Source: Escherichia phage vB_EfeM_pEP20. From it: a stretch of DNA of 64,000 bases. Both the position numbers and the translations under genes were made by a program. The stretch lies in the sequence record OQ743992. One strand, 5' to 3'. Position 1 is the stretch's first letter, and every line of letters starts with the position of its first letter. This document shows positions 2,883 to 19,004 of the stretch, in pieces. Below the pieces are notes generated by a model that was not told the origin of the DNA, searched no databases, and saw only the letters and a list, made by a program, of their open reading frames with translations.

Positions 2883-3446
2883 TTAACCTAAAAAGTCTTT
2901 TAAATTGCGCTCTGTGATGTTTGCCGTGATTTTATCCAGCAAGTCACAAAACACGGAACTATCACCGCTATTCTGTACAATTTTCGCCATACTTAACAAA
3001 TCATCGTCAACATAGCCTAAATTGCGGTTAGTTGCATCTGGTACAAAGAAAGGTGCATACATCGCACTAAATTTCGTCGAGTGAAGGCCAATAATCCAAT
3101 TTTTATCAAAGTGTCCGGTAAAGCTGGCGATATCGCTCATGTTGTCACAAGAATAATCATCCTCTAGCTCTTCCTCTGGGATATCCATCTCAATGACAAT
3201 TACGTCCTGCGTTTCCATTTGGAAAGCTGCCGTAATAAGCCCAGATTCTAAAGCGTTTTGAATGCAGCGTTCACGAATGTAAGAATCTTCCTCATCTTCC
3301 AGACATTCCGTTTTGATAATCTTGTTCATTGGGTAAACGTAGAAACAATCATCCATGTAGGAGCAGTTCCAGATTCCTTCTGGCTTGTCACCACCATTCA
3401 GCAAGTTTACAAAGTTTTTGAGGGTAGTGCCGTGATAGCATTTCAT
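2883..3446 (-). CDS. Putative PARP/diphtheria-toxin-like (H-Y-E class) ADP-ribosyltransferase-like protein (187 aa); tentative
   Basis: N-terminal YHGTTLKNFVNLLNGG resembles PARP HGSRTTNFAGILSQG and toxin SYHGT; followed by SYMDDCFYVY (compare YMFGKGIYF) and a candidate catalytic Glu in VIVIEMD; type-B cassette upstream. Confidence 0.4.
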   Translation of the reverse strand: MKCYHGTTLKNFVNLLNGGDKPEGIWNCSYMDDCFYVYPMNKIIKTECLEDEEDSYIRERCIQNALESGLITAAFQMETQDVIVIEMDIPEEELEDDYSCDNMSDIASFTGHFDKNWIIGLHSTKFSAMYAPFFVPDATNRNLGYVDDDLLSMAKIVQNSGDSSVFCDLLDKITANITERNLKDFLG

Positions 3447-3538
3447 TTTTGAATCTCCAGTTTAGGATTTAGCGGTAAAGCTCTTTATCTGGGGCTTAAG
3501 ATATCAACTTTTAAGCCCCCTGTAAAGTACTTTATTAC
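3447..3538 (-). repeat. Type-B intergenic cassette (palindrome GTAAAGTACTTTAC, hairpin GGGGCTTAA...TTAAGCCCC, RBS)
   Basis: About 90-bp element found at 6 sites. Confidence 0.6.
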
Positions 3539-3736
3539 TTAATTTTTGACAACTTTTAAAACTGCAAGATAACCTAAGCAATAAGAATCACCGAAGAGAG
3601 TTCTACCCATGAAAGAATCCTCTTTGATATCCTTTGCAGTGACAGTTTTTTCTACGCCGTGGGAAAGGACTACATCACCAACTTTGATGTCTTTGATGTG
3701 TGTTGTTTCAATGGTTAAGCCGTTAATAATAGCCAT
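3539..3736 (-). CDS. Hypothetical early protein (65 aa)
   Basis: ORF plus type-A cassette RBS. Confidence 0.45.
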   Translation of the reverse strand: MAIINGLTIETTHIKDIKVGDVVLSHGVEKTVTAKDIKEDSFMGRTLFGDSYCLGYLAVLKVVKN

Positions 3737-3808
3737 TTTAGAATCTCCTAGTTTAAGGACTTTATTTAGTGGGGAAGGTCATTCCCTCCCCGTTGATTAG
3801 TAATTTAC
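3737..3808 (-). repeat. Type-A intergenic cassette
   Basis: Near-identical to the 2495-2566 copy. Confidence 0.6.
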
Positions 3809-3839
3809 TTGTTTTAAAAACCAAAATCAAGAGGAATTT

Positions 3840-4244
3840 TTATAGTTCTGCGTAAATTGCGTCACAGATATCACGAAAATCATGATTTGTTAAATTACGT
3901 TGCAACCATGTTGCGAAAAAGTCAGCGATTGCAAAATTTGCGTCATACTCGACAGATAACCACACTTTAACAGCAAAACGAAACATTTTTAAATCAAGCT
4001 CTTTATTCATTACCTTAGATTTGCCTAACATGTCAGCCATTTCATATTGTGCACCGTCTAGCGTGATACCTGCTGCAACGTCAGCCAGTGAGTTTTTTAC
4101 GTTTTCAACGTCTAAGATAACACTTTGAATCTTCCCGATAATGTTGTGCAATGTCTCATCCGGTGCTGATGATGTAATAACATTAATCCGATTAACGGTC
4201 AAACGTGCTTTTAAGATTGATAACTCACGGTTATTAATAGCCAT
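3840..4244 (-). CDS. Hypothetical early protein (134 aa)
   Basis: ORF plus type-B cassette RBS. Confidence 0.5.
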   Translation of the reverse strand: MAINNRELSILKARLTVNRINVITSSAPDETLHNIIGKIQSVILDVENVKNSLADVAAGITLDGAQYEMADMLGKSKVMNKELDLKMFRFAVKVWLSVEYDANFAIADFFATWLQRNLTNHDFRDICDAIYAEL

Positions 4245-4329
4245 TTTAGAATCTCCAATTTAGGATTGAGTGATAAAGCTCTTTATCTGGGGCTTACTTT
4301 ATCGAACTATAAGCCCCTTGTAAAGTACT
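4245..4329 (-). repeat. Type-B intergenic cassette (variant loop)
   Basis: ggggcttactttatcgaactataagcccc hairpin plus gtaaagtactttat. Confidence 0.55.
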
Positions 4330-4602
4330 TTATGCTAAATGCAGCTTTTTGCCTTTTACTATGATGTAACTTGATGCACTATTGCCGCATACATCTTGAT
4401 AAATTCTACGCAAACGGCCTTCGTAGTATACTTTCCAGCTAGTTGGAATCTTTTTCCCGTATCCGGTAGCAGTTTTTTGGAATCCTGCAAGTTGCCAATC
4501 CAAAATGTGCTGTTCAGCTTGTAAATCCTCGAAGTGCATTACACCGTTCACATAGTGGCGTAGGGTTACGTTTAGAGTGCGACTGTTGTTAGCAGTATAC
4601 AT
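4330..4602 (-). CDS. Hypothetical early protein (90 aa)
   Basis: Start moved to ATG (MYTANN...) directly after a cassette-type GGAGA RBS. Confidence 0.45.
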   Translation of the reverse strand: MYTANNSRTLNVTLRHYVNGVMHFEDLQAEQHILDWQLAGFQKTATGYGKKIPTSWKVYYEGRLRRIYQDVCGNSASSYIIVKGKKLHLA

Positions 4603-4627
4603 TCTAGAATCTCCTAGTTTAAGGATT

Positions 4628-4786
4628 TTATTTTGACAGTTCACTAATTAAGACATCAAAGATTATATCATTATCTGCTACAGTTGCAACACCAGTGATA
4701 TAATCAATTTCTAAGATAACAACAACTTTCGTACATAAACCGTCATCTATATCATTCCAGACAACTTTATCACCTGCACAAAACAT
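4628..4786 (-). CDS. Small hypothetical protein (52 aa), absent from the ORF track (below its size cutoff)
   Basis: Hand translation MFCAGDKVVWNDIDDGLCTKVVVILEIDYITGVATVADNDIIFDVLISELSK; ATG preceded by type-A cassette RBS. Confidence 0.35.
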   Translation of the reverse strand: MFCAGDKVVWNDIDDGLCTKVVVILEIDYITGVATVADNDIIFDVLISELSK

Positions 4787-4856
4787 TTTTAGATTCTCCA
4801 GTTTAGGACTTTATTTAGTGGGGAAGGTCATTCCCGCCCCGTTGATGTGTAATTTA
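4787..4856 (-). repeat. Type-A intergenic cassette
   Basis: ggggaaggtcattcccgcccc hairpin plus RBS. Confidence 0.55.
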
Positions 4857-4875
4857 ATCTATCTGAAAACCAGTG

Positions 4876-5208
4876 TCAACAGTTTTGTTTTCGTTTGTTC
4901 AGTTCTTGGACAATTACAGTGTAATAGTCTTTTAAGTCACTGATATTTAAAGCATTTATCAGAGAGTTATAATCATCGACAAGCTGAAAATCATCTTTGA
5001 AAATGTCGCTGATTTGATAAGTTTTTGATTGAAATCTGAAGCTCATTTCTAACCGTTTTATTTGTTCATCACTTAAACGCTCCAGAAAACTCATTACAAG
5101 GCTATTATTGACCTGTTGCGTGATTGCCTTACTTGCCAGATTGTAGGCGCTGTACGCCTTATATAGCGCCATAATAGCAATGATTGCAGTGACTCCCATC
5201 ATTAACAT
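4876..5208 (-). CDS. Hypothetical membrane protein (110 aa, N-terminal TM helix)
   Basis: ORF; hydrophobic MLMMGVTAIIAIMALY; start overlaps the stop of the upstream gene. Confidence 0.45.
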   Translation of the reverse strand: MLMMGVTAIIAIMALYKAYSAYNLASKAITQQVNNSLVMSFLERLSDEQIKRLEMSFRFQSKTYQISDIFKDDFQLVDDYNSLINALNISDLKDYYTVIVQELNKRKQNC

Positions 5209-5498
5209 GGTGTTACCTCTTTACGTGACACTTTGCCATTTACAGTTATCTCATAGGATTCTAATAAATCGCTTTTAGACTTTACAGGACTTTTAAAAGT
5301 ATCATCATAGATATTAACTTGCAATACAGGTTTTTTATACTCCCTGCAACTATTCCATAAGCAAATCACTACACGACGGCCTTTTATTTTGCCGTGTAAC
5401 CATTCCATAACATCATGACTATTCCTTGATGTCTCGATAAAATCGATTTTATTGAGTAATTTGCTAAGGTTTTCCCTAACTTTATTTGATAATTTCAT
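5202..5498 (-). CDS. Hypothetical early protein (98 aa)
   Basis: ORF plus type-B cassette RBS. Confidence 0.5.
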   Translation of the reverse strand: MKLSNKVRENLSKLLNKIDFIETSRNSHDVMEWLHGKIKGRRVVICLWNSCREYKKPVLQVNIYDDTFKSPVKSKSDLLESYEITVNGKVSRKEVTPC

Positions 5499-5590
5499 TT
5501 TAGAATCTCCTAGTTTAAGGGTTTTATTTGATAAATCTCTTTATCTGGGGCTATCCTACCAGCTTGATAGCCCCGTGTAAAGAGGTCTAT
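5499..5590 (-). repeat. Type-B intergenic cassette (variant)
   Basis: ggggctatcctaccagcttgatagcccc hairpin plus RBS. Confidence 0.5.
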
Positions 5591-6103
5591 TTAGTCCTTA
5601 AAGATATTCATCACTGAATCTTTTAATGCTTCCAAGCGTTCTAATACTTCAGATTCTGCGTCTGCGTTGTTCACTTCCTCTTTTAGTCTGCCATCTAAAT
5701 CATCGCCGTCACTGTAGCACCAATCGAAAGCATAACCAATATAAAAACTGTCTAAAACAGTGTTACCATCTGCATCTACAACTTTCGCGGCAATGTTATA
5801 CTCTGAAGCCTCTAAATCTCTTTCTAGTTCTTTCTGTAAGCTGGTGTAAGCCTCTTTTGATGGATTTTCCCGACCTTGTTTTGCATAGTCACTAGAAAGC
5901 TGTTTAAGGCTGTAATGTAAAGGGATTGCATATTTAAATTCATTATGCTGATGGTTGGGATTTTTAATAGTTACACCGCCTTGATGGTCATCTGTAAACT
6001 GCCAATTATCAAGATTATGGCTTGCTTCAAAGCAGTTTACAGCTTCATAGATGATAGAAAATTTTTCTTTTACAACTTCAAAGGTAGCGTCTACAGTTTT
6101 CAT
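5591..6103 (-). CDS. Hypothetical early protein (170 aa, acidic C-terminus)
   Basis: ORF plus type-B cassette RBS. Confidence 0.5.
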   Translation of the reverse strand: MKTVDATFEVVKEKFSIIYEAVNCFEASHNLDNWQFTDDHQGGVTIKNPNHQHNEFKYAIPLHYSLKQLSSDYAKQGRENPSKEAYTSLQKELERDLEASEYNIAAKVVDADGNTVLDSFYIGYAFDWCYSDGDDLDGRLKEEVNNADAESEVLERLEALKDSVMNIFKD

Positions 6104-6193
6104 TTTTGAATCTCCTAGTTTAAGGATTGAGTGGTAAAGCTCTTTATCTGGGGCTTAAGATATCAGCTTTTAAGCCCCCTGTAAAGTACTTTA
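6104..6193 (-). repeat. Type-B intergenic cassette
   Basis: Same element as 3447-3538. Confidence 0.6.
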
Positions 6194-6451
6194 TCAGATT
6201 AAATTGCCAGTTAATGATAAGTGCATTTTATAGCCTTTTTTGGTAAACACGTTCACTTTACCGAGTGATTTTACACCTTTAAAAAGATTGTTTGAACTGC
6301 GTTTTAAGGTTATTTGCTTATCAGCCTTCACGCTCCACCTTACAGCAGATTGTTTTCCGTTGTCAACAACTTTCCCGCCTAACTTTTTCGCCATGATGCG
6401 AGCGTCATCACGAGTTTTTGCAGGAACTACAACGTTTTTGATAATAGCCAT
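6194..6451 (-). CDS. Hypothetical basic protein (85 aa)
   Basis: ORF plus type-B cassette RBS. Confidence 0.5.
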   Translation of the reverse strand: MAIIKNVVVPAKTRDDARIMAKKLGGKVVDNGKQSAVRWSVKADKQITLKRSSNNLFKGVKSLGKVNVFTKKGYKMHLSLTGNLI

Positions 6452-6539
6452 TTTAGAATCTCCAATTTAGGATTGAGTGATAAAGCTCTTTATCTGGGGC
6501 TTACTTTATCGAACTATAAGCCCCTTGTAAAGTACTTTA
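6452..6539 (-). repeat. Type-B intergenic cassette
   Basis: Near-identical to 4245-4329. Confidence 0.6.
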
Positions 6540-6920
6540 TCAGTTAATTTTGAATATTGTCACATAACCATCACTACCAATTATTTGAGACGCTCCAGCT
6601 TTCTCCACTGAATAGCCCATATTTTCAAGATGGTAAACAGCATCATCATAACCATATGCGCCACCTTGATAACGTCTCTTATTGCAGCTTATCAGGTTTT
6701 TACCACGTCCAGCAAGTGCATTCAATACGGCTTTTTCACTTGATAGCGTACCATCTAACATGGTTGCCGTGTAATGGTTGATTTTATTCCCGTTAATATC
6801 ATACTTAAAATTGAATGCGTGAACAACAATCAATTTGCCGTTAAATTTTTCATCAAGTGACTTCTCCAGTGCGTTGCGGAAGTTGTCTTTGTTGATGAAT
6901 TTCGGTGCACGATAAGCCAT
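6540..6920 (-). CDS. Hypothetical early protein (126 aa)
   Basis: ORF plus type-B cassette RBS. Confidence 0.5.
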   Translation of the reverse strand: MAYRAPKFINKDNFRNALEKSLDEKFNGKLIVVHAFNFKYDINGNKINHYTATMLDGTLSSEKAVLNALAGRGKNLISCNKRRYQGGAYGYDDAVYHLENMGYSVEKAGASQIIGSDGYVTIFKIN

Positions 6921-7009
6921 TTTTGAATCTCCTAGTTTAAGGTTAATGTAGTAAAGCTCTTTATCTGGGGCTTAAGATATCAGCTTTTAAGCCCCCTGTA
7001 AAGTACTTT
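6921..7009 (-). repeat. Type-B intergenic cassette
   Basis: Same element as 6104-6193. Confidence 0.6.
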
Positions 7010-7216: not shown

Positions 7217-7472
7217 TTTTGGATTCTCCAGTTTAGGAAGTGGGCTGGCTTGCCCGTCTGATGCAAATATTAGATAACCATACTCAAAGAGTCAATAGGA
7301 ATTTTAAAAATATTTTTGCAAAAAACTGTAATGAAACGGGCGCACGCGACTACCACAAAACAGAACTACAATCAAGAATTATTTTTCAATCAGCTACAAA
7401 TTTTTCTGTTGACTTTTCTTTTCAGATGTGGTAGCCTTGTGAGAAATGGCGACATCCCCACCTGCACCCACC

Positions 7473-7651
7473 TACCTGCACAATTCTAAAATGATTTTTC
7501 TTGCCCGACCTGAGCGGGGTCTGCACGTTTTGAAAATAAAAAAACCCTTTGGAGATTACCTGCACAGTTTGAAAATGAATTTTCTCTTTGGAGTTCAAAA
7601 TTTTCTCTATAGATTTCTCTACAGAACTCTACCTGCACAAATCTGAAATGA
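7473..7651. promoter_or_regulatory. Three direct copies of 22-bp motif TACCTGCACA(a/g)(a/t)T(c/t)TGAAAATGA at ~7473, 7557 and 7630, in a 500-bp intergenic region
   Basis: Read directly; about 80-bp spacing; candidate promoter or operator sites between two minus-strand gene blocks. Confidence 0.4.
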
Positions 7652-7724
7652 AAAAGCCCTCCTTACCTGAAAAATTTACCAGATAAGAAAGGCTTAGTCT
7701 ATTGTGAATATACTACGAAGTTTC

Positions 7725-8510
7725 TTAGTTCTTTGCGTCTAAGAAGGTAAGCTCTGGTGAAGAGAAGATTAACTCAATATCCTCATCAGTTCTTGCATAG
7801 ATATAAGCATCTGCATCACTGCCAAATGTTACTGCAATTCTGTGATTGCTCTTCGACAGGTGGGTAACTAGAGCGTTACTTAGAGACATCTTTTCAACCG
7901 GAGGGTTACTTTGATGTATCTTGCCTTTTCTTCGTCTGAAGAGGGTAACTGCATCATTAGTGAACACTACTACACCTGCAAAGTATTCTGGTTCACAGTA
8001 GTTCTTCCAACCTGAGCGTAACTTGTGGTACATCTCTCCTTCATAGACATATAGATACACATCTACACTCTTCATCACTTGATTAATGATAACTGTGACG
8101 GCTTGAGGGTCTAGTCCACCGATACCTGCACCAATCATAGGTAACCCAACTTTCTTCAACTGATTGACTTCACAGTATCTGTTAAGCTGTTTCAAAGATG
8201 ACTCTAAAGCACTGTATCGGGCATCTTTACCAGTCTTAAGCTGAGTGTAAAGGTTAGCTATACGACCTTGTTTTAAACGTGCTACAGAGAAATTACCTAG
8301 CAAATTTTCACAGGGTTTGTAGCCTATACCACCTGCATACAGATAAACTTCTGTATCAGTCTCATATGCTTTTGGGTAAAGTTTAGAAATCTTGTCAGCG
8401 ATACCTGCACCCATTAAGTTCATACAGTTGCAACCGTGACCGATGACGTCAAACTTACCTTTATCAAATGCTGCAAAGATATCACCATTGATGATTTTTA
8501 CAATACCCAT
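7725..8510 (-). CDS. Macrodomain protein (TARG1/OARD1- and DarG-like N-terminal domain plus about 110-aa C-terminal domain of unknown function)
   Basis: GDIF...HGCNCMNLMGAGIA and LPMIGAGIGGL resemble TARG1 GDLF...MGAGIA and MPRIGCGL; last gene of a coupled operon. Confidence 0.6.
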   Translation of the reverse strand: MGIVKIINGDIFAAFDKGKFDVIGHGCNCMNLMGAGIADKISKLYPKAYETDTEVYLYAGGIGYKPCENLLGNFSVARLKQGRIANLYTQLKTGKDARYSALESSLKQLNRYCEVNQLKKVGLPMIGAGIGGLDPQAVTVIINQVMKSVDVYLYVYEGEMYHKLRSGWKNYCEPEYFAGVVVFTNDAVTLFRRRKGKIHQSNPPVEKMSLSNALVTHLSKSNHRIAVTFGSDADAYIYARTDEDIELIFSSPELTFLDAKN

Positions 8511-8711
8511 TTAACATCTCTCCCAAGATTCTTTATCTTCTGAAGGTTTTACACGTTGTCCTTCGTGGTCTACCCAGATACACCCGCAGCCTTCACAGAT
8601 TACTGGCATTGCATAACCAGCTTTAAAGTCGTCTTCAGTGATAAGACCTTTTAAGTCTCCTGTATCACGTCCGAACATTTCGATAGAACAGTCTTTGCAG
8701 AAGTCAGCCAC
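8511..8711 (-). CDS. Small Cys-rich (zinc-ribbon-like) protein (66 aa)
   Basis: CKDC...CEGCGC; GTG start overlapping the upstream stop; its stop abuts the macrodomain ATG. Confidence 0.45.
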   Translation of the reverse strand: MADFCKDCSIEMFGRDTGDLKGLITEDDFKAGYAMPVICEGCGCIWVDHEGQRVKPSEDKESWERC

Positions 8712-8937
8712 GAATAATTACCTCTTGAGTGATAATACCTTTACCACAACGACTTTTAAAATCTTCTAATGGTTCAGAGAAGAAGTCACGGAAATGGTTA
8801 CTACACTCACGTTTCAGCACCTTCTTGTAAGTTAACACATCTTTTTCTGCAAACGGGATGACTTCATTTCTCCCTATGAATACTGCTGAACTTACAATCT
8901 TACGAGTCTTTTTATTTCTGGCTAGTATTACTTTCAT
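8704..8937 (-). CDS. Hypothetical protein (77 aa)
   Basis: ORF in translationally coupled chain. Confidence 0.4.
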   Translation of the reverse strand: MKVILARNKKTRKIVSSAVFIGRNEVIPFAEKDVLTYKKVLKRECSNHFRDFFSEPLEDFKSRCGKGIITQEVIIRG

Positions 8938-9238
8938 AGTTTACCTTCTCAGTTAGCTCATATAAATCAACATGCTCAATATTGTCAATGTTGATATTAA
9001 TCTTTTTGAAACGTTCTATCACTTCGTTGTCAGTCATCCATATTAGACACCAATGATTCTGAATGGATTCTTCAAGAAGGTCAACACAATCTTTAAAAGT
9101 TTTTGTATCACTTCTCGTTCCGACTACTGCGATTGTTCCATATAACCACTTACCATTACCATAAGTTACTTGTGCTACACCAACTTCTTTATCATTCTCA
9201 TAGTAAACGGCTACAAAATCTCTTCCATTAATCTGCAT
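8912..9238 (-). CDS. Hypothetical protein (about 108 aa)
   Basis: Start moved to ATG (MQINGRDF...) preceded by GAGGAG 7 nt upstream. Confidence 0.4.
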   Translation of the reverse strand: MQINGRDFVAVYYENDKEVGVAQVTYGNGKWLYGTIAVVGTRSDTKTFKDCVDLLEESIQNHWCLIWMTDNEVIERFKKININIDNIEHVDLYELTEKVNYESNTSQK

Positions 9239-9542
9239 TTGTAAGCTCCTCTGTTGGTAACTCACCATTTTCAGCAAAGTACTGAAGGTATGGCAATAAC
9301 TCTTTCACCTGTTCTTGGTTGAGTTTCATTCTTTGGTTACCTACAAAATCTTTGCCTACTAATGCTGGGATATCAAGTGTTTTCCAGCCACCATCTAGGT
9401 ACTGAACAGAGACCTCTTTAGCACCTAACCAGATACATGGTTCATATGATGAACTTTCTTGTAAAGTACAAATCTCTCCTTTAGCATCTTTAAATTCTGC
9501 ATAAGAAAATCCACGATTTGTTGGCTGGAATTGCATAATCAT
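9228..9542 (-). CDS. Hypothetical protein (104 aa)
   Basis: ATGA start/stop overlap with the upstream gene. Confidence 0.45.
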   Translation of the reverse strand: MIMQFQPTNRGFSYAEFKDAKGEICTLQESSSYEPCIWLGAKEVSVQYLDGGWKTLDIPALVGKDFVGNQRMKLNQEQVKELLPYLQYFAENGELPTEELTNAD

Positions 9543-9808
9543 TTCCTCGTTTTAAGAACTGCTAAGATTTCTTTAGAGTCTGGTAAGAACCATGTGTAGT
9601 GATTCTCTTTGATTTCTGGATGAGTGTCAACCTTTATTTTGCACTCTTTACCAACATGCTTAAGCTGTGCTGTGACACCTTGCATAAAGATATGGCACAT
9701 CACGTTATCCATAATGGTTGGTGAGAAATCAACCCGCATATAAGTTTCTTTTGGTCGTGGTAGTAGTAAGTACCCTTCTACATAGAAAGTATCTTCATTC
9801 TCTGTCAT
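9539..9808 (-). CDS. Hypothetical protein (89 aa)
   Basis: ATGA overlap with the lipoprotein gene stop. Confidence 0.45.
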   Translation of the reverse strand: MTENEDTFYVEGYLLLPRPKETYMRVDFSPTIMDNVMCHIFMQGVTAQLKHVGKECKIKVDTHPEIKENHYTWFLPDSKEILAVLKTRK

Positions 9809-10074
9809 TGCTGTTTGTTTCCTAATAAAATCATATCAATAAGGTTATTAGCTTTGATTGTGCACTGGTAAAAACCATCACGATAAAACTCAAGGGCTGC
9901 TGCCACATCGCTGCCAGTATTACCTTTGACAGTGAATCTTGATTCTTCTTGAGTGTACTTGTCACTCTCACTTACTTGGGAGTTTTTGAATGTACTGTTC
10001 ACTTTGTTCGTTGAACACCCTGACATAATTATCAGTAACACAAACATTATAAAACTCTGGCTTAGTCTTTTCAT
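9805..10074 (-). CDS. Lipoprotein (signal peptide plus lipobox IMSGC); o-spanin-like position, embedded in the 3' end of the upstream TM-protein gene
   Basis: MKRLSQSFIMFVLLIIMSGC; own RBS AGAGGT; 107-nt out-of-frame overlap with 9968-10315. Confidence 0.45.
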   Translation of the reverse strand: MKRLSQSFIMFVLLIIMSGCSTNKVNSTFKNSQVSESDKYTQEESRFTVKGNTGSDVAAALEFYRDGFYQCTIKANNLIDMILLGNKQQ

Positions 10075-10315
10075 ACGTTAGTACCTCTTTTGTGTGCTTA
10101 TTCTTAGCAAGCACATCTTTCAAATCATTTTTGTAATTGGTGCTGAGTGTGGCTAAACCTTCCTGATAAGCATCTTTAGCAACACTTATTAGTTTCTCAT
10201 TATTTAGCTCAGCTTCAGCAACTTGGTAGTCTCTGTAAGAGTATCCTCCCCAGACACCTGCCCCAACTAAGAAAACAATTATGAAAGTAGCTTGGCAGAA
10301 CTCTTTAAATGTCAT
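9968..10315 (-). CDS. N-terminally membrane-anchored coiled-coil protein (i-spanin-like), 115 aa
   Basis: TM helix FIIVFLVGAGVWGG then helical region; RBS caGGAGAttgttaaATG; first gene after a terminator. Confidence 0.4.
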   Translation of the reverse strand: MTFKEFCQATFIIVFLVGAGVWGGYSYRDYQVAEAELNNEKLISVAKDAYQEGLATLSTNYKNDLKDVLAKNKHTKEVLTYEKTKPEFYNVCVTDNYVRVFNEQSEQYIQKLPSK

Positions 10316-10842: not shown

Positions 10843-11538
10843 TCAATGTTTTACTAACATAGTTTTAATGTGCGGAAGGATTCTGTTTACCTTCTGAACA
10901 TTCTTCTCTGTATCTTCTATAAAACATACTATATTAAAGTAAGGAAGAATGCAAGACTGAATCATCCTCACTTTCAAACTTTCTGCATTTATAGAGTTAG
11001 TTCCAAAACCACGCATAAAAAGCATGTAATCATGCTCTATGTTATGCCTTAAAAACATCTCAGTAGGTATTCTCTGAGATTCACCTCTAGCTGTCAAGAG
11101 TCCAATGGCAGCATGATTAGCAATTGCATCAATGATACTGAAAACATACGTTGGTTTTGCTCTTACAGAGTCAAGAAGATTAGTGTACTGTGAGAATGAC
11201 CCATCAGTCAATTCCGTTGAGCAATCTTCGTGATTAAAATTTGTAAGAACACCATCAATATCTGCTAAGATGAGGTTACCTTTTTCTACAAGGTCTTTAT
11301 TGACTATGACTAAACTGTCACGTCTTACACCTATAGATTGTCCAGTCTCTTTGTCCACAACGTTCACAATTAGTTCTGATGTGTGGAACTCTTCAAGTGA
11401 ACATACAACTTCTCTTGCAGTATCTTCAAAATCTCTGCACTGTTCTGGAGTCCATACACAGGAATCAAGACCTAACTCATGAGAATGCAAGTCGTAAGCA
11501 TGGCACAGTACTTCATCAGACTTTCTTAATTTTTTCAT
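10843..11538 (-). CDS. HAD-superfamily phosphatase-like protein (231 aa)
   Basis: Motif I ILADIDGVLT (DxDG) and LLTARGE. Confidence 0.5.
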   Translation of the reverse strand: MKKLRKSDEVLCHAYDLHSHELGLDSCVWTPEQCRDFEDTAREVVCSLEEFHTSELIVNVVDKETGQSIGVRRDSLVIVNKDLVEKGNLILADIDGVLTNFNHEDCSTELTDGSFSQYTNLLDSVRAKPTYVFSIIDAIANHAAIGLLTARGESQRIPTEMFLRHNIEHDYMLFMRGFGTNSINAESLKVRMIQSCILPYFNIVCFIEDTEKNVQKVNRILPHIKTMLVKH

Positions 11539-12126: not shown

Positions 12127-12151
12127 AAAAAGGCCGCCGAAGCAGCCTTTT
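12127..12151 (-). terminator. Intrinsic terminator after rIIB (GGCUGC-UUCG-GCGGCC then U6AU3)
   Basis: Stem-loop plus U run on minus-strand RNA. Confidence 0.55.
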
Positions 12152-12164
12152 AAGAAATTACTTA

Positions 12165-13274
12165 TTAGATTTCACGTTTACGTTGAGAGATGAGTTCACC
12201 AGCAGTACCAACGATGACATGCAAAGCCTCAGTCTTACCGTCCCATGCTTTCAGCACTTTACGTTGGTTATCAACGATTGCTGTAACTTCATAACGAGAT
12301 GAACGCATCTTCATATCGTTGTAATCAGTTGGAACAGATACAACATCTCGTGGATGGACACGAACCTTCAGAATTGTATCACCTGAGAAGCAGCGAACAT
12401 AATCCCAAGCACCAACATGAAGACCCTGAGAGCAAGTCACGTTACGGTTATTATCAACCATCCAACGTGGCATTTCTACAATGTTACCCAAATCATTAGG
12501 TACTTTGTATGTGCGGGAGTCAACCAGCTTGCCTTCATGAGTAGAGACTTTCTTCCAGCCAATGATGTAGCCTTCTTCATCAATCTCAACATCAAGGTGA
12601 GATACGAATCCCCAAAGTTGTTCTACAGAATCTTTAGATGGGTTTTCCATCAGTTTTTCGAAGAACATTACAAGTCGTTCAAAGCCTTTATCACCAGCCT
12701 TCATCATGTGAAGAATACGGTCAACCAGAGTAGAACGCATCTCAATAGCACCGTAGAATAGCTTGTCACCTTTGATTGTGATAGCCCCCTGAGTGAAGTT
12801 TTCGATAGACTTACGAATGTTCATCAGTTCGAAAGCTTTCTTATACTCACCGGATACAACAGCCATTACGATTTCTTTGTAGTTCGGATGGGTAGATTCA
12901 ACGATTTCAGAATCTGCACCGAAAGTCATGATAACAGAGTCACCAGTAATCATGTACTCAATCTGGTTGCCATTCTGCATAGCTTCATGCAGTTTATTTA
13001 CTGGAGCTTTCTGTACATCCTTGTTAACAGCCTTTTTAACTGGCTTGTCAGCTTTCTTTTTAACTGATTTAGCAACTTGCTTCAAAGTCTTCGTAGCTGG
13101 TTTAGAAGCTACCTTTTTCTTACCTTTTAAGGTTGCTTCATGACGCTCTACAGCACGACCAACTGAACGGGTTGAAGTGTTGAACTTCTGTGCAATCGCT
13201 GTTTTAGTCAGCTTACCTTCTTTAACCAGTTCGTAAATTTCTGCATCAATCTGTGCTTTAGTTTTAGTAGTCAT
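12165..13274 (-). CDS. rIIB: rIIB-like protein (369 aa)
   Basis: Immediately downstream of rIIA; C-terminal VHPRDVVSVPTDYNDMKMR matches my recollection of T4 rIIB. Confidence 0.7.
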   Translation of the reverse strand: MTTKTKAQIDAEIYELVKEGKLTKTAIAQKFNTSTRSVGRAVERHEATLKGKKKVASKPATKTLKQVAKSVKKKADKPVKKAVNKDVQKAPVNKLHEAMQNGNQIEYMITGDSVIMTFGADSEIVESTHPNYKEIVMAVVSGEYKKAFELMNIRKSIENFTQGAITIKGDKLFYGAIEMRSTLVDRILHMMKAGDKGFERLVMFFEKLMENPSKDSVEQLWGFVSHLDVEIDEEGYIIGWKKVSTHEGKLVDSRTYKVPNDLGNIVEMPRWMVDNNRNVTCSQGLHVGAWDYVRCFSGDTILKVRVHPRDVVSVPTDYNDMKMRSSRYEVTAIVDNQRKVLKAWDGKTEALHVIVGTAGELISQRKREI

Positions 13275-13353
13275 CTTATTACTCTCTCTTGTTAGTTAAT
13301 AAATCATTTTGTAAGGCTATTCTAAGGGGCTTTGAAGCCCCTTGTCAAACACT

Positions 13354-15720
13354 TTAATCGTAAATTGTAGTACCTTCTGGAACACACTTCACATCAAAGC
13401 CTAAGAACTTACTCACTTCGATGGGTGACACTTTATTCCAATCTAAATGGGAAAGCAAGAAGTTTTCTTGTTTTCTTTTTGAAAGGTAGTTTGTCAGTTT
13501 GATAACCATGCGGTCACCCGCTTTCTTAATCTTTTTGTACAGTTTTGTATCATTGTCAAGGCATGACTTCAAATCCTGAAGAACACTGATAGTATAAGTG
13601 TATGCAAACGGTGCAGCCACATACTGAATCTTACCAAACATTGCCTCAACAGCATTCTCATTACCTTCTAAGAAGATGGTTTTGTTTGTATCTCGTGAAT
13701 AGCAATACCCGCGAGAAATCTTCCTGTTATTGAATGTAAAGTTTCTGGCAATAATCCAGCTACTTGTAAGGTCAAGAACACCATTCATGTAGATGCGTGT
13801 CATATATCTGTTATGATTAATCCAATGAACATCAGTTAAGCTATCGTTCAAGAGCTTCTCATCTACTTCAATCCAGTCTTCTGGTATCTTTTTCCAATTT
13901 GCTTTTCGGAAAACATAGACTGTCTTTCCAATAACATTCGCAACTGACTTAGCTACATCTTCTGGAGATGAGCAAAAACACTCACCATCAACTGTGTCAC
14001 CAACTGCCTTAATGTAAAGCTGAGGCTCTTCAATTGTGTCTAAGTCTTCTGATACCTCTTTGTAGGAAGCTACACCTTCTGCTGGAACAGCTTTCCAGAG
14101 TTTTACAACACCTCTTACAGCTTCTTTACGCTGGTAATGGTGTTCCTTATCAGACATTTTCACAATCTTTAACAAGCTTTTATCAAGTTTGTGCAGATTG
14201 ATTAAGTCATCTAACTCTTTTTCAGTAGAGAATACAAAGACAATACCATTGTATCTGTGAAACAGACTTGACTCACTGGCATAGTCTCGACATGCACCAC
14301 GCAAGATTTGGTTGCGTCCTACAGTCTTCTCAGTACCGTTTTTATTGCGACGGTCATTTATAATAAACAAAAACTGTTCAATTTGGCTTTTACGCATTGC
14401 GCCAAAGATATTGAACATACTTGCCTCTTGAGTGTAGGAAAGTGCTGTTGCACGAATCTTACTCTCTAAAGAGTTGAACTTGACATAAGCAACTGGGTCA
14501 TAAAGGTAATCTACTTTAGGGATGTTGTTTCCATTCCTATCAACCTTAATATTACCTTTACCATCACGTTCATAAATAACTGAGCCGTCTTCTGCGTAGA
14601 TAATTCCACGACGAATGTTTAGCAATTCTTCTTCCATAGAATCAAGCTTAACGCCTCCCCACTCTAGCTTTGGGCATACAGCATTAAACATCTCTCGTGA
14701 GTTCAAACGTAACTCAGCATAAGCCTGTGCAGCATCCATGAGTGTAGGTTGACTATTAACTTTCTTGATAACATCCTTTGTAATTGCTTCAGTTATCTTT
14801 TTAGTAGCCTCAATGATAACATTTTTTGTCGTATCATTCATCTGCAATGCTTCACGAGAAGCTGCAATAGCAACTGAACCAATAGGCATGTAGATGTTTA
14901 CAAGGTCTACGCTCCTACGGAAAAATTCTGGCAAGACTTTGAAGAAATCATCACCAAGTAATGCTTCCATGTTCACTGGATAGGCAATATTACCCATCAC
15001 CACATTAAACTCTGTCCTGTTACCACTAGAACGCCAGCTTTGCTTATGAATCATGGCATCATAAACACCTTCTTCACGGGCAATGACATTCATATCTGCT
15101 AATACATCGTCATACTCGATATTGCTTTCTGGTTTTACAGCAAAGTATGAGTATACGTGACCAGCTTCTTCAAAGAACTTTGAGATACGATGGTCAGCAA
15201 CTGCTACACGTACAGCTAAACCATTAGGTTCTTTTGTTGGGTTAGTGGTTAGCTTAGTCACTTGAGGAATACCATTCTCAAGATAAACAGAGTATTTATT
15301 AACAACACCATCAACGTAGCTCGATACTGTGAATGACTGAGCAATTGCAAACGGTGACTTTGAGCCGATACCCATTGCACCAATGTAGTCATTAGAGTCA
15401 TTCTTTGTAGAAGCCCCGTAGTTCAGATACAGACTCATCACTTTGTCATGAGTTAATCCAGTTCCAAAATCACGAACTTCAAAGTAAGGCTCAAAACGAG
15501 TAGGTAAATGCACATGGAACGGGATGTTCTCTTTTCCAGCTTCTTTCTGAGCATCTACTGCGTTACATGACAGTTCACGAATGACTGCCCTTTCTTTAAA
15601 GGTATATACACCAGAACTCAAAAGACTGAACATTTCAGGTGTCATTGTAATCTGTGCTTGAGACGTCTCTAAAGAAGTTGAGCTTTTAATCACTTCTGCG
15701 TGGTCGTTTACCATGCGCAT
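13354..15720 (-). CDS. rIIA: rIIA-like protein (788 aa, GHKL ATPase-like N-terminus)
   Basis: RELSCNAVDAQ (compare T4 RELITNMIDAH) and IGAMGIGSKSPFAIAQSFTVSSY (compare T4 IGGFGLGSKSPF...SITSY). Confidence 0.8.
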   Translation of the reverse strand: MRMVNDHAEVIKSSTSLETSQAQITMTPEMFSLLSSGVYTFKERAVIRELSCNAVDAQKEAGKENIPFHVHLPTRFEPYFEVRDFGTGLTHDKVMSLYLNYGASTKNDSNDYIGAMGIGSKSPFAIAQSFTVSSYVDGVVNKYSVYLENGIPQVTKLTTNPTKEPNGLAVRVAVADHRISKFFEEAGHVYSYFAVKPESNIEYDDVLADMNVIAREEGVYDAMIHKQSWRSSGNRTEFNVVMGNIAYPVNMEALLGDDFFKVLPEFFRRSVDLVNIYMPIGSVAIAASREALQMNDTTKNVIIEATKKITEAITKDVIKKVNSQPTLMDAAQAYAELRLNSREMFNAVCPKLEWGGVKLDSMEEELLNIRRGIIYAEDGSVIYERDGKGNIKVDRNGNNIPKVDYLYDPVAYVKFNSLESKIRATALSYTQEASMFNIFGAMRKSQIEQFLFIINDRRNKNGTEKTVGRNQILRGACRDYASESSLFHRYNGIVFVFSTEKELDDLINLHKLDKSLLKIVKMSDKEHHYQRKEAVRGVVKLWKAVPAEGVASYKEVSEDLDTIEEPQLYIKAVGDTVDGECFCSSPEDVAKSVANVIGKTVYVFRKANWKKIPEDWIEVDEKLLNDSLTDVHWINHNRYMTRIYMNGVLDLTSSWIIARNFTFNNRKISRGYCYSRDTNKTIFLEGNENAVEAMFGKIQYVAAPFAYTYTISVLQDLKSCLDNDTKLYKKIKKAGDRMVIKLTNYLSKRKQENFLLSHLDWNKVSPIEVSKFLGFDVKCVPEGTTIYD

Positions 15721-15748
15721 AATACTTTCCTCTTAGTTTACTGTTAAA

Positions 15749-15925
15749 TTACTTATTAAACATTTTACCAGAACCGCCACACATAGGGCAACAACCTGCT
15801 CTTGTATACCCTTCTCCATTACAGTAGTCACACTTCTTGTACTCTGCATAGTACTTGCAAAGAAGGTAAACAAACACTGCTACACTACCAAGTGACAGTA
15901 AAATTTCTATCCAATATGCTTGCAT
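15749..15925 (-). CDS. Small membrane-anchored protein with two CxxCxGxG (DnaJ-type zinc-finger-like) motifs, 58 aa; absent from the ORF track
   Basis: Hand translation MQAYWIEILLSLGSVAVFVYLLCKYYAEYKKCDYCNGEGYTRAGCCPMCGGSGKMFNK. Confidence 0.35.
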   Translation of the reverse strand: MQAYWIEILLSLGSVAVFVYLLCKYYAEYKKCDYCNGEGYTRAGCCPMCGGSGKMFNK

Positions 15926-16242
15926 GACTCACCTCTCATATTCTTGTAAAGGATAAAGCTTCTGTCATGGACGATACTTGTAGATACTGCAAAGTTACTT
16001 TCAAGCATCTGTTTGTTTGGATTGTAGAAGCTTTCTTTAAACTCGTCAAGTGCAAATTGGTGATTGTCTGGAAGACCCTTTACACACACCTTTATTGTGA
16101 TTGCTGCTGCAACCTTGCCAGTCAGTTCTTCTTTAGCTGCTACTAAAATTTTGTTAAGGAACTTATGACCATCTTCAGGCTTCTTGATGTTCTCCCAACG
16201 TTCTTCTAAGACAATGTTGATGTTCATCTCTTTGATTTTCAT
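15907..16242 (-). CDS. Hypothetical protein (111 aa)
   Basis: ORF with RBS ggaga. Confidence 0.45.
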   Translation of the reverse strand: MKIKEMNINIVLEERWENIKKPEDGHKFLNKILVAAKEELTGKVAAAITIKVCVKGLPDNHQFALDEFKESFYNPNKQMLESNFAVSTSIVHDRSFILYKNMRGESCKHIG

Positions 16243-16260
16243 AGTTTTCTCCAGAAATTA

Positions 16261-16285
16261 AAAAGGCTCCCGTAGGAGCCTCTTA
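16261..16285 (-). terminator. Intrinsic terminator after the NAMPT-like gene (GGCUCC-UACG-GGAGCC then U5)
   Basis: Stem-loop plus U run on minus-strand RNA. Confidence 0.55.
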
Positions 16286-16295
16286 TCATATACTT

Positions 16296-18077
16296 TTAAA
16301 GTTGCTTGTCAATATTATTTCGAATATCACCAAGAGTTGTGTAACCATACTGCTCAGAATCACTAAAGACTAAGCGTAGAGCGCAAGCTGGATGTTCAAG
16401 TGCATCTTCAAAGCTTTGGAATCCATAGCCATCTACAGCTTTCAGTTTATCACCATCCCACATAGGTGCTACACCACCAAAAGCAGACTTCTTAACACCA
16501 CTATCTGTTTTAGGGTCTTTTGCAATCATAATCTCTTTACCACCAATGCTTGCAAGAGTTGCTTTAACAGCAAATGCAAAGGTGTCACGAGTCATGTACT
16601 GGTAAGTGTAAGAGCCTACGCCAAACACTACGTTAGAGCTTGCAAAACCCATTTCATACAGACGCTTCAGGATTTCGTTTGCACGTTCCAGTGTGATAGA
16701 GTCACCATAGATAAGGCCAATGTGCTCATCCAGTACCTTAAAACCTTTGGAGTTGATAGTCCCTCCGAAGATGTTATACAGGGTCTTAATAGCCCCATCA
16801 ATCTCTGCTACAGGACGTGTTACAACGTTTGCAGAGCCAACCATATAAGCATTTTTCAACATCACTGTATCGGCAACTTCAAAGTCTTCTCTGTCAACAA
16901 CCATTTCGTAGCCTTCTGACAGTAGCCATCCAGCAATACCATAACTGATGTTTTCAAGCTTCATGTTCAGAACAGCATTCAACATCGTGTCGCTGGCTTC
17001 AAGCTTGCTTAAGTGTTCGTAATAAGCCTTTTTAGCACACTCTAAATGGATTGCTTTGTATCCTGTGACAATATGTACAGGGTCTCCAGAATCAGGACGA
17101 ATTACCAGTTTGCCATCACGTCCCATAATCTCTTTGCGGAGTTCTGGTAATATGACTGATACAGTCCTCCAGAAATTATAAGTATCTGAGACAACACTTG
17201 CAATACCAGTTGGGTAAGTCTCTGTTAAAAAACGATGGAAGGTTTGTAACTCACCTTTAAAACGTCTTTCATCTTCAATCAACTCATTACCACCTTCCCA
17301 AGCAATGTTTGCACACATTACAGAGTGTTCAGTGGCTGGTACAGAGCTACCAATATCAGAGATTGGGTAGGACTGTCCATAGATACGTTTAGCTGTATAC
17401 ACAGCAGGGAAGCTATCAGTTCCTTTAAAGCTGGTTAAGTGACCTACAGCGTTAAATGCGTCATCAGTAAAGCCAGACATACCACGCATAGCGAAGTCAT
17501 GGCACTGATAAGGTAAATGTAAGTCGTTGTCACAAGTAAGGTCAGCCCACTTCTTACAGATACGTTTGTAGTGCAATGCAATAGTTGCAATGGTACAAGC
17601 CTTCCAAATCTCAGCAGAGAAAGCATCTTCCAGATACCCCGCTACCCAATGGAAACCTGAAACAGTGTTCTGGAAGACAATCATTGGTACACGCATAGGG
17701 ACAACTGTGCCTTCTTCTACAGCGTATACTTCAACTGGCAGATAACCTAAGTCGTGAAGTGCTTCCCAATGCTCTCGACCAATAGCATCTTTACCCAGAA
17801 CACCGTTCATGACTTCTAAGATTTCGTCAATTGCTTCTTTTTTGTCACGTTCGAAGAAGGTGGCGTTCCAGTGGTCTATCAGGTAATCTTTAACAAAACG
17901 CTGAATACCAAAAGCAACTACACCATCAATTGCTAAGGGGCTGTTAAACCATTTGTCGCTACGTGGTGTCAGGTTGAACATCAAGTACTCTGTTGCACTA
18001 GGATACTGGTAGATGTGACCAGATTTGTAAGCATCTGCGTTTAAACCTGCTGGTACTGCATAAAGTGATTTAGTCAT
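16296..18077 (-). CDS. Nicotinamide phosphoribosyltransferase family protein (NAMPT/NadV-like; candidate Namat of NARP1)
   Basis: N-terminal NADAYKSGHIYQYP matches NAMPT DSYKxxHxxQYP signature; 593 aa; adjacent to PRPP-synthetase-like gene. Confidence 0.75.
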   Translation of the reverse strand: MTKSLYAVPAGLNADAYKSGHIYQYPSATEYLMFNLTPRSDKWFNSPLAIDGVVAFGIQRFVKDYLIDHWNATFFERDKKEAIDEILEVMNGVLGKDAIGREHWEALHDLGYLPVEVYAVEEGTVVPMRVPMIVFQNTVSGFHWVAGYLEDAFSAEIWKACTIATIALHYKRICKKWADLTCDNDLHLPYQCHDFAMRGMSGFTDDAFNAVGHLTSFKGTDSFPAVYTAKRIYGQSYPISDIGSSVPATEHSVMCANIAWEGGNELIEDERRFKGELQTFHRFLTETYPTGIASVVSDTYNFWRTVSVILPELRKEIMGRDGKLVIRPDSGDPVHIVTGYKAIHLECAKKAYYEHLSKLEASDTMLNAVLNMKLENISYGIAGWLLSEGYEMVVDREDFEVADTVMLKNAYMVGSANVVTRPVAEIDGAIKTLYNIFGGTINSKGFKVLDEHIGLIYGDSITLERANEILKRLYEMGFASSNVVFGVGSYTYQYMTRDTFAFAVKATLASIGGKEIMIAKDPKTDSGVKKSAFGGVAPMWDGDKLKAVDGYGFQSFEDALEHPACALRLVFSDSEQYGYTTLGDIRNNIDKQL

Positions 18078-18122
18078 CTTTTAATCTCTCTCAAAATGGG
18101 GCTTTTAAGCCCCTATAAAGTT

Positions 18123-19004
18123 TTAATCAAGGTTGGCTACAGTAACTTGGCCATAATGTGTTAAGCCACGGTCTTTAGCTTCCCCTAAAGAGTTTGTAGT
18201 GTAGATGTGGTCAATGCCGTTGTCAAGAAGGTTTTCAACATCTTTAGAGAAGATACCATGTGTTACATAGAGTTCCACACGTTTTGCACCTGCTTCACGA
18301 AGATGTTTAGCTGCTTCTATGAAGGTTCGGCCCCCATCACAAATATCATCCAGAATCATGACGGTTTTATCTGTCAAATCAACATCATCAAGGATTCGCA
18401 TACCAGTAATTTCACCAGTCTTAAGGTTACGCACTTTAGACATTGTGATGTATGGTTTATCCACCTCTTTAGCAGTCTCTGCAATCTTCTTAGCAGCACC
18501 TGCATCTGGGGCTACTAAGTAATCAACCAGTGGGTCATTTGCATAGTGGACTGCAATTTCCTTTTGAGGAATACTCTGGAAGCAGTTAAATAGGTTATCT
18601 GGTACATAACTGTGAGGGTCAACTGCACAGACTGCATCAAAATCCATTGCATTAACCTGTTGTGCAAACACTTTCAAAGCTGCTGCATCGCCTTTAAACA
18701 TGTGACGGTCATAACGTGCATTTGGCAAATAGTAAAAGATAATGGTCTTCATAGCAAATTTATGAGGTACTAAATCATCAATTGCTTCTTTAGCAAGTGC
18801 CACAGCAAACAATGTGTCTTTATCATAACCTTTTACAATCATAATCACATTGTTGATGGATGATGCTGCATAAGCAGTGAAATCAACAAACTCTGGTGAA
18901 AAGTGTCCACCAATCTCACCAGAAGGGAATTGGATGATGTTAAACTCTTCTTCGTGAGTCCCTTTAGTGGGTGAATGGACTGTAACACGGATAGATGTTT
19001 TCAT
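18123..19004 (-). CDS. Ribose-phosphate pyrophosphokinase (PRPP synthetase)-like protein; candidate Adps of NARP1
   Basis: PRPP-binding loop VMILDDICDGGRT; start moved to ATG (MKTSIRV...); 293 aa. Confidence 0.7.
   Translation of the reverse strand: MKTSIRVTVHSPTKGTHEEEFNIIQFPSGEIGGHFSPEFVDFTAYAASSINNVIMIVKGYDKDTLFAVALAKEAIDDLVPHKFAMKTIIFYYLPNARYDRHMFKGDAAALKVFAQQVNAMDFDAVCAVDPHSYVPDNLFNCFQSIPQKEIAVHYANDPLVDYLVAPDAGAAKKIAETAKEVDKPYITMSKVRNLKTGEITGMRILDDVDLTDKTVMILDDICDGGRTFIEAAKHLREAGAKRVELYVTHGIFSKDVENLLDNGIDHIYTTNSLGEAKDRGLTHYGQVTVANLD

Follow-up and report, generated by a model that had tools for sequence, protein, structure and literature searches.

Three ADP-ribose-related modules in the early region of a Felixounavirus: a NARP1 pair and a macrodomain protein that probably share a metabolite, and a predicted ART-fold protein inherited with them

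When several genes for handling NAD+ and ADP-ribose lie close together in one phage genome, do they make up a single counter-defence system, or are they separate functions that draw on the same metabolite pool? The question is raised by a 64,000-nucleotide stretch of Escherichia phage vB_EfeM_pEP20 (record OQ743992; the whole stretch is hereafter the window). An earlier note, made from the sequence letters, had described in it a PARP-like writer candidate, a TARG1/DarG-like macrodomain operon and an Adps/Namat-like pair within 16 kb, and had proposed that these form a layered anti-immunity strategy. The coding sequences of all three modules are indeed present on the minus strand within 16 kb, and all of their products plausibly handle NAD+ or ADP-ribose. 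The three modules are real, the layered idea is supported in part, and the link between the macrodomain and the Adps/Namat pair (NARP1) had already been published. We consider it probable that the window phage carries three independently transcribed early functions sharing the NAD+/ADP-ribose pool and not one dedicated system: NARP1 and the macrodomain protein are linked through a shared metabolite, and the ADP-ribosyltransferase (ART)-like protein is linked to both by co-inheritance only. The features on which this reading rests are as follows.

2883-3446, minus strand: 187-amino-acid (aa) protein with a predicted ART fold (phrog_3303, 'unknown function'), from an AlphaFold2 model and family conservation
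7725-8510, minus strand: 261-aa macrodomain protein (Pfam Macro E=1e-7, residues 25-141; phrog_335)
8040-8510, minus strand: macrodomain of that protein, residues 1-157, assigned to the phage Tk.4/Adpp family from Pfam, phrog_335 and alignment to RB3 Tk.4 and Gary Adpp
7725-8039, minus strand: its C-terminal extension of ~100 aa (residues 158-261), found in Ounavirinae only
16296-18077, minus strand: Namat (nicotinamide ADP-ribose transferase, Nampt-like), the second NARP1 enzyme (Pfam NAPRTase and NAMPT_N)
18123-19004, minus strand: Adps (ADP-ribose diphosphokinase, Prs-like), the first NARP1 enzyme (Pfam Pribosyltran and Pribosyl_synth; ATG at 19004)
7695-7654, minus strand: terminator-like hairpin of 17 pairs, the strongest in the region, immediately after the macrodomain gene stop
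10356-10339, minus strand: terminator-like hairpin, upstream bound of the macrodomain unit
16284-16261, minus strand: terminator-like hairpin directly after the Namat stop
19842-19820, minus strand: terminator-like hairpin, upstream bound of the NARP1 unit

The three modules occupy three separate transcription units, with terminator-like hairpins between them. Two of these hairpins (19842-19820 and 16284-16261) bracket a unit of two small open reading frames (ORFs), Adps and Namat. The macrodomain unit, from 10315 to 7725, is likewise bounded by such hairpins, and in this sense the predicted macrodomain 'operon' exists; with i- and o-spanin genes and five small ORFs inside, it is not a dedicated ADP-ribose operon. 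Its macrodomain gene lies 7.8 kb, or about 18 genes, from NARP1, with rIIA and rIIB (12165-15720) intervening. The phage itself is a Felixounavirus. Bas63 (JohannRWettstein), where NARP1 was discovered (bioRxiv 10.1101/2024.02.11.579819), belongs to this genus too, and we compared its genome (MZ501086) directly with the window. Felix-O1-like myoviruses of E. coli and Salmonella match the window at 92-94% DNA identity across the full 16.3-kb region, which has matches in 278 records; in 61 of these the matches span 80% or more of the query. The genes of the first 36 kb are carried by the minus strand, and the region is the early, host-takeover arm of a Felixounavirus.

The Adps/Namat pair is NARP1 and already known; the claim made for it held on both Pfam families and identity to Bas63 (79.9% for Adps against gp79, 97.5% for Namat against gp80). 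The two genes lie on the same strand with 45 nt between them, the Adps ORF being extendable upstream to a TTG at 19019. Relative to Bas63, the genus, gene order and flanking genes are the same, synteny is conserved, and the two-gene unit is bounded by terminator-like hairpins; there is no substantive difference beyond the window Adps being the other allele (80%), with Namat nearly identical. Since Felixounavirus is the genus where NARP1 was found, its presence here adds nothing new. In the published chemistry, ADP-ribose (ADPR) and ATP yield the pyrophosphorylated form ADPR-PP, which is then joined to nicotinamide to give NAD+; Namat function was demonstrated in Bas63 and SpbetaL1, and deletion of Bas63 gp79-80 lowered plating efficiency ~20-fold on SIR2-HerA, with no ADPR-PP formed and less NAD+ recovery (bioRxiv 10.1101/2024.02.11.579819). 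By orthology to Bas63, the window pair would share this chemistry and would rescue the phage from NAD+-depleting defence. Bas63 Namat also has an adenine 'selectivity clamp' formed by aromatic residues of the SCL loop and SCH helix (PMC12774641), which we assume for the window Namat from its 97.5% identity. Within the genus, tblastn separated two Adps identity classes (at least 90% and about 77-80%); these classes, together with the unequal similarity of Adps (80%) and Namat (97.5%) to Bas63, indicate that the NARP1 operon is itself a mosaic.

For the macrodomain protein, the literature offers two functions within one phage family. KNV71_gp137 of Vibrio phage Gary, named Adpp, is a purified ADPR-1''-phosphate phosphatase; encoded between Adps and Namat, it enables NARP1 to overcome aRES, an NAD+ phosphorylase with a RES domain, and this arrangement of NARP1 and Adpp was named NARP1-AP in a January 2026 preprint (bioRxiv 10.64898/2026.01.28.702374). 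T4 Tk.4, renamed AdfM, protects T4 from DarTG2, as a transposon screen and a clean knockout showed (HIDEN-SEQ, bioRxiv 10.1101/2025.11.20.689424), its mechanism being inferred from phenotype and structural similarity and not from biochemistry (bioRxiv 10.1101/2025.11.20.689424). For comparison we used the following two sequences.

4001-4477 of the retrieved Gary locus: Adpp
1498-1977 of the retrieved RB3 locus: Tk.4, at the tk.4 locus

Identity of the window macrodomain is 34% with RB3 Tk.4 over ~155 aa and 26% with Gary Adpp; Tk.4 and Adpp, at 39%, are closer to each other than either is to the window protein. In BLASTP, residues 3-154 of the window protein aligned with residues 1-156 of Adpp (26%, pairwise E=9e-14), taking in the full 158-aa Adpp; tblastn matches in T4-like phages, where they fall on the tk.4 locus beside vs, ranged from E 1e-15 to 1e-17. 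All three proteins have in common the motifs H-x-x-N-C..MGxGIA, N-L/V-Y-x-Q and GLPxIGxGxxGxD, and the H-x-C-N-C..G-x-G-I-A motif, present in all family members aligned, also links Tk.4 to yeast Poa1p. Adpp and AdfM may thus belong to one enzyme family with both activities. Compared with Tk.4/AdfM, the window protein belongs to the same macrodomain family, and both are stand-alone early genes of virulent myoviruses, but the window protein has a C-terminal extension and a NARP1 in the same genome. T4 is not known to carry NARP1.

The resemblance to TARG1 and DarG described earlier is genuine, although membership in either group did not hold. In a PDB sequence search the 261-aa protein matched TARG1 best (E=1e-5), followed by coronavirus Mac1 (~1e-3) and yeast Poa1p (0.02). 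Its best NCBIfam and PADLOC profile matches were DarG macro profiles (E=1.7e-12 and 3e-13), confined to the macro part and reaching 47 bits against a 250-bit cut-off. In contrast to TARG1/OARD1 and DarG, the protein lacks the catalytic Lys and Asp, a DarT partner and the DarG C-terminal domain: in a MAFFT alignment, TARG1 K84 falls on Q90 and D125 on G131. The catalytic lysine of DarG is K80. We rejected the DarG-profile match as evidence of an anti-DarT role, as Gary Adpp and all other phage members match likewise, below threshold. When Tk.4 and Adpp were themselves searched against PDB sequences, Tk.4 came nearest to BT1257 and Poa1p and Adpp nearest to TARG1, the reverse of the pairing that one would expect from their published functions. 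Because no sequence test that we tried separates the two functions, activity on ADPR-1''-phosphate, on DNA, or on both is plausible for the window protein. On homology we hold the ADPR-1''-phosphate activity to be somewhat probable and activity on DarT2-modified DNA to be slightly short of probable, the two not being exclusive; the removal of ADP-ribosyl marks that had been predicted is one of two equally plausible roles, with ADPR-1''-phosphate dephosphorylation as the other.

Relatives place the macrodomain gene in two kinds of context. In Pakpunavirus CAb02 the order is Adps (ORF24)-ORF23-Namat (ORF22)-ORF21-Macro (ORF20), and in Vibrio phage K470 it is Adps-Macro-Namat; in both, the sole macrodomain-family gene found in the parts searched is the one inside the NARP1 operon, as in NARP1-AP. 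Ounavirinae differ: in each sequence examined (from the window, Bas63, 26 Felix-like IMG/VR contigs, Erwinia phiEa21-4 and Pectobacterium Wc4) the gene lies downstream of rIIA, rIIB and a HAD phosphatase gene and carries the ~100-aa C-terminal extension. Against the NARP1-AP of Gary, the window has the Adpp-family motifs, an alignment over the full domain and a NARP1 in the genome, but its macrodomain gene lies outside the operon and more than two genes away, encodes ~100 extra C-terminal residues and reaches 26% identity. This matters for counting: the NARP1-AP survey took in two genes on either side of NARP1 (bioRxiv 10.64898/2026.01.28.702374), and because only these were scanned, Ounavirinae were missed. 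Felix-like records (at least 60% identity) make up ~250 of the 1407 Adps-bearing records, and ~243 records have the matching macrodomain. If Felixounaviruses, Bas63 included, amount to natural NARP1-AP phages of a split kind, roughly twice the published 15% of NARP1 phages would be equipped against RES-type NAD+ phosphorylases, and their distal macrodomain gene raises the question whether operon-based counting underestimates NARP1-AP. The unlinked arrangement of macrodomain and NARP1 has not been described before, the macro-NARP1 link being known in principle; a literature search for Bas63 or Felixounavirus with macrodomain, DarTG or ART returned nothing relevant. Because their macrodomain member is unlinked from NARP1, Bas63-type phages lend themselves to a clean genetic test of whether a single enzyme has the two functions.

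The extension itself gave no Pfam, profile or PDB sequence match. Homologs outside Ounavirinae (T4-type Tk.4, Pakpunavirus, Vibrio K470, Gary) stop at about 150-160 aa, tblastn covering 55-62% of the 261-aa protein there, and even Felixounavirus and Kolesnikvirus have strongly divergent versions of the extension, which could serve in targeting or regulation.

The PARP-like writer candidate survived at the level of the ART fold, as seen with AlphaFold2 and with Foldseek against BFVD, but not as a member of the PARP family proper, no PARP model being matched. By sequence, the 187-aa protein had no match in Pfam, NCBIfam, PADLOC or PDB, and matched neither the PARP catalytic domain model nor PARP accessory domains; in PADLOC, none of the four module proteins, this one included, matched DarT or another defence ART model. 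A word-indexed homolog search returned Ounavirinae relatives only, and a profile search of 1.84 billion cluster representatives (clusters at 50% identity) returned 306 relatives at E<=0.001; the full-length relatives listed are all stand-alone proteins, mostly of 160-240 aa. An AlphaFold model from 13 close homologs only was discarded (predicted local distance difference test, pLDDT, 48), whereas AlphaFold2 with a 137-sequence alignment gave pLDDT 95.3 and a predicted template modelling score (pTM) of 0.90. Searched with Foldseek against BFVD, phage DarT was matched (E=7e-4), and the family profile against PDB sequences best matched, weakly (E=0.085), the 'LFHGT + helix' start of the Tpt1 NAD+ lobe. 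Across the 137 sequences, with a mean column identity of ~20%, H5, G6, T7, W26, S29, Y36, D97, S99 and M103 are 93-100% conserved (D97, S99 and W26 at 100%, H5 and Y36 at 99%). H5 and Y36 fit ART motifs 1 and 2; there is no invariant Glu, E86 being 61% conserved, and the pattern would fit an H-Y-[acid] NAD+ site with Asp in place of Glu. From the predicted structure, the protein very probably has the split beta-sheet of an ART fold, an assignment that appears new for phrog_3303, and we rate it an even call whether it is catalytic, binding NAD+ and probably transferring ADP-ribose.

Set against the ART superfamily (the Tpt1/KptA NAD+ lobe, DarT, pertussis S1, LT, TreX/TreTu), the protein has no significant sequence similarity and no Pfam model, and carries an invariant Asp, in D-x-S-C-x-N-M, where ARTs canonically have Glu. 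It lacks PARP accessory domains and the two-lobe form of Tpt1/KptA, with its N-terminal RNA lobe and R-H-R(-R) residues. T4, with Alt, ModA and ModB alongside the Tk.4/NADAR erasers, resembles the window phage in that both are virulent myoviruses with an ART-fold protein and ADP-ribose-removing enzymes, but the window protein has an H-type first motif and an unrelated sequence; the T4 ARTs belong to the R-S-E clade, with known targets including RNA polymerase and ribosomal proteins. Within Felixounavirus the gene occurs as two alleles ~55% identical, with flanking genes at 95-98%, and most relatives lose DNA homology exactly at its 5' end (about 3412-3445); the locus looks like a hotspot of recombination or diversifying selection. 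A conserved putative active site combined with unusually divergent alleles is a pattern typical of host-interaction or counter-defence genes, and the ART fold, now assignable to a widespread phage-only family in myoviruses of E. coli, Salmonella, Erwinia, Pectobacterium, Pseudomonas and Vibrio, provides a concrete experimental lead.

How often the three modules travel together was examined in a collection of 50,697 phage records, with co-occurrence judged on representative genomes. The ART-like family was found in 372 records, the macrodomain family (by tblastn with the N-terminal 155 aa of the window protein) in 2850 and Adps in 1407; under independent assortment, all three would be expected in fewer than one record. 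Extrapolating from the cultured ART-bearing lineages checked, all of which also have NARP1 and a macrodomain, we estimate a few hundred records with all three. The excess is largely shared descent, because these records fall into only about three deep lineages. The 372 ART-like records comprise Ounavirinae together with 78 Pseudomonas (those placed being Pakpunavirus-like), 23 Vibrio and 4 Pectobacterium phages, and all three modules occur in Felixounavirus, Kolesnikvirus, a Pectobacterium ounavirus, Pakpunavirus and Vibrio phage K470, related large myoviruses of which several also share rIIA/rIIB neighbours. Co-occurrence across related phages, which the earlier note had suggested as a check, holds in Ounavirinae, Pakpunavirus and K470, but the modules are separable elsewhere. 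T4-type phages have the macrodomain family and no ART-like family; among Escherichia phage records the macrodomain outnumbers Adps by 997 to 177; four metagenomic contigs from two distant lineages of the ART-like family have no macrodomain or NARP1 within 10 kb of the family member; and the linear Pakpunavirus genome has the ART-like gene and the other two modules at opposite ends, on different strands. Within Felixounavirus, ART and Adps alleles reassort independently, with identities to the window of 55% and 100% in one relative (L014), 55% and 80% in Bas63, and 99% and 99% in another (L012).

A general theme of NAD+/ADP-ribose co-occurrence is not new, because a 2022 survey reported it: of the myoviruses, 30% had ARTs and 41% Macro domains, 22% of medium-sized phages had NadV, and domains of the NAD+/ADP-ribose network co-occurred widely in large myoviruses, the ADP-ribose-processing ones above chance (PMC9503650). 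The same survey predicted that phage macrodomains act mainly on soluble ADP-ribose derivatives, including RES-made ADPR-1''-phosphate (PMC9503650). With this survey and the published pairing of macrodomain and NARP1, the earlier statement that the combination is not a known system needs correction.

In the explanation that we favour, three early functions would work side by side. Adps would pyrophosphorylate free ADP-ribose released by host NADase defences, and Namat would join the product to nicotinamide, rebuilding NAD+. The macrodomain protein, by homology, would dephosphorylate ADPR-1''-phosphate, which aRES and other RES-type NAD+ phosphorylases produce, and so free ADP-ribose; the window phage would then be a 'split' NARP1-AP whose phosphatase gene lies 7.8 kb away from the operon. 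Additionally or alternatively, the protein may release ADP-ribose from thymidine ADP-ribosylated in DNA by DarT2, as proposed for T4 Tk.4/AdfM. Either activity would yield substrate for NARP1. The 187-aa protein, judging from its H-G-T, Y and D-x-S residues, would be an NAD+-consuming transferase acting on a host or nucleic-acid target. Several points weigh against this explanation. The window macrodomain is slightly nearer to T4 Tk.4 (34%) than to NARP1-embedded homologs (26-30%), its gene is not part of the NARP1 unit, and the C-terminal domain that it has acquired may point to another role. The TARG1 residues K84 and D125 are not conserved in it, as is the case in all phage members aligned, the active Gary Adpp included. 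On the ART side, Foldseek against PDB gave no significant match (pertussis S1 on top, best E=0.1), only conservation points to the third residue of the putative H-Y-D triad, and the protein could be a non-catalytic binder.

In one rival reading the macrodomain protein is purely an AdfM-type anti-DarT factor, stripping ADP-ribose from thymidine in phage DNA and functionally unrelated to NARP1. Tk.4 is the closest characterised homolog (E ~1e-16) and is reported to protect T4 from DarTG2, DarG macrodomain profiles match, and the gene is uncoupled from NARP1 in the window; moreover, if T4 lacks NARP1, as the unequal Escherichia counts indirectly support, the macrodomain family has a value independent of it. 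The DarG-profile match, however, does not discriminate, as Gary Adpp and operon-embedded homologs match equally well; the DarG/TARG1 catalytic lysine is replaced by Gln throughout the family; sister lineages keep the macrodomain gene inside NARP1; and the AdfM mechanism was itself deduced from phenotype and structural resemblance. We regard this reading as somewhat unlikely. It is also unlikely, in our assessment, that the 187-aa protein is a binder, either soaking up NAD+-derived immune signals as a sponge or inhibiting a host NADase or ART by mimicking or occupying it. Such a role would suit a small, stand-alone, acidic protein without a target-recognition domain, its hyper-divergent alleles are typical of contact with a host factor, and several recent phage counter-defence proteins against NAD+-linked systems bind and do not catalyse (bioRxiv 10.64898/2026.01.28.702374, Discussion). 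The near-invariance of D97, S99, W26, H5 and Y36 at ART NAD+-site positions looks more like an active site, but a conserved ligand pocket would give an identical pattern.

An integrated system, in which the ART writes marks, the macrodomain erases or recycles them and NARP1 returns ADP-ribose to NAD+, the three being selected together, we consider very improbable. Its appeal is that all three chemistries converge on ADP-ribose, that Ounavirinae, Pakpunavirus and Vibrio phage K470 have the families within ~16 kb of one another or together in one genome, and that every cultured ART-bearing lineage checked has the other two modules. Yet the modules form three separate units in the window, the ART-like gene of Pakpunavirus is remote and reversed, metagenomic ART-family members stand apart from both partners, the families are of unequal size, ART alleles of ~55% identity reassort independently of Adps alleles, and shared descent is enough to explain the co-occurrence, because the lineages with all three also share rIIA, rIIB and other early genes. 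Also against it, deletion of NARP1 alone produces the SIR2-HerA phenotype in Bas63 with the macrodomain gene gp95 and the ART-like gene gp107 still present. What remains of the layered strategy is that NARP1 is established in Bas63, that macrodomain output feeding NARP1 is published as NARP1-AP and that the macrodomain gene sits inside the NARP1 operon in two ART-bearing lineages; the ART-like protein is tied in only by inheritance. A more specific version, in which phrog_3303 is a new H-Y-D-type phage ART clade working with macrodomain and NARP1 as a three-enzyme NAD+/ADP-ribose counter-defence kit in Ounavirinae, Pakpunavirus and K470-like Vibrio phages, strikes us as quite improbable; were it true, the ART might ADP-ribosylate a host NADase effector or nucleic-acid ends, with macrodomain and NARP1 recycling the ADP-ribose. 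We give least credence, very little indeed, to RNA-end repair, in which the ART-like protein would act like Tpt1/KptA on RNA 2'- or 5'-phosphates, the HAD phosphatase and macrodomain would process ends and ADP-ribose by-products, and NARP1 would recycle ADP-ribose.

Neighbouring features of the three units are listed here.

8511-10315, minus strand: seven tightly packed genes, i-spanin, o-spanin and five small ORFs (spanins as annotated in Bas63)
10843-11538, minus strand: 231-aa protein annotated 'polynucleotide kinase' or 'phosphatase', with HAD motifs read from the sequence
12165-13274, minus strand: rIIB, as annotated in relatives (98.6% identity to the Bas63 protein)
13354-15720, minus strand: rIIA, as annotated in relatives (87.5% identity to the Bas63 protein)
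16312-16285, minus strand: promoter-like site (11/12 match) adjoining the hairpin at 16284-16261
19016-19802, minus strand: two ORFs of 171 and 92 aa, orthologs of bas63_0077 and 0078

Adps is separated from the upstream terminator by the 171-aa and 92-aa ORFs, which have no Pfam family and probably share a transcript with NARP1. NARP1 adjoins rIIA/rIIB in Ounavirinae, as it does in Vibrio phage K470, with a different order: Adps-Namat-rIIA-rIIB in the former and rIIA-rIIB-Adps-Macro-Namat in the latter. The 231-aa HAD protein is located between NARP1 and the macrodomain unit; its DIDGV, LLTAR and EDTEKN motifs resemble the 3'-phosphatase domain of T4 Pnk, a kinase P-loop was not seen in it, and phosphorylated ADP-ribose species or RNA ends could be its substrates. 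In the macrodomain unit, a 66-aa protein (8511-8711, minus strand; phrog_2210) has two CxxC pairs and the look of a zinc ribbon, and because its ORF ends exactly at the macrodomain start, translational coupling of the two is suggested. The ~500 bp downstream of the macrodomain gene (7217-7724) hold no minus-strand ORF of at least 68 aa; the short ORFs present, on both strands, measure 50-66 aa. Bas63 has two small coding sequences annotated on the opposite strand at the counterpart of this segment, which has no Rfam match, nor did an Rfam search of the window as a whole return one.

Two further candidates for NAD+ or ADP-ribose handling were considered. A gene at 29899-30396 (minus strand), labelled 'NAD synthetase' in several relatives, was rejected as a fourth NAD+ module; because its domain is a SegE-type GIY-YIG homing endonuclease (Pfam E=9e-28), the label is a propagated mislabel. 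In Pakpunavirus CAb02, ORF30 (13424-13978) encodes a Nudix (MutT) hydrolase ~2.3 kb upstream of Adps, another candidate for handling ADP-ribose, and no Nudix hydrolase is annotated in the Felix-like records examined. Finally, the closest GenBank record to the window, PV390658.1 (vB_EcoM_P54), is filed under Straboviridae/Tequatrovirus and is really an 88-kb Felixounavirus-type genome.

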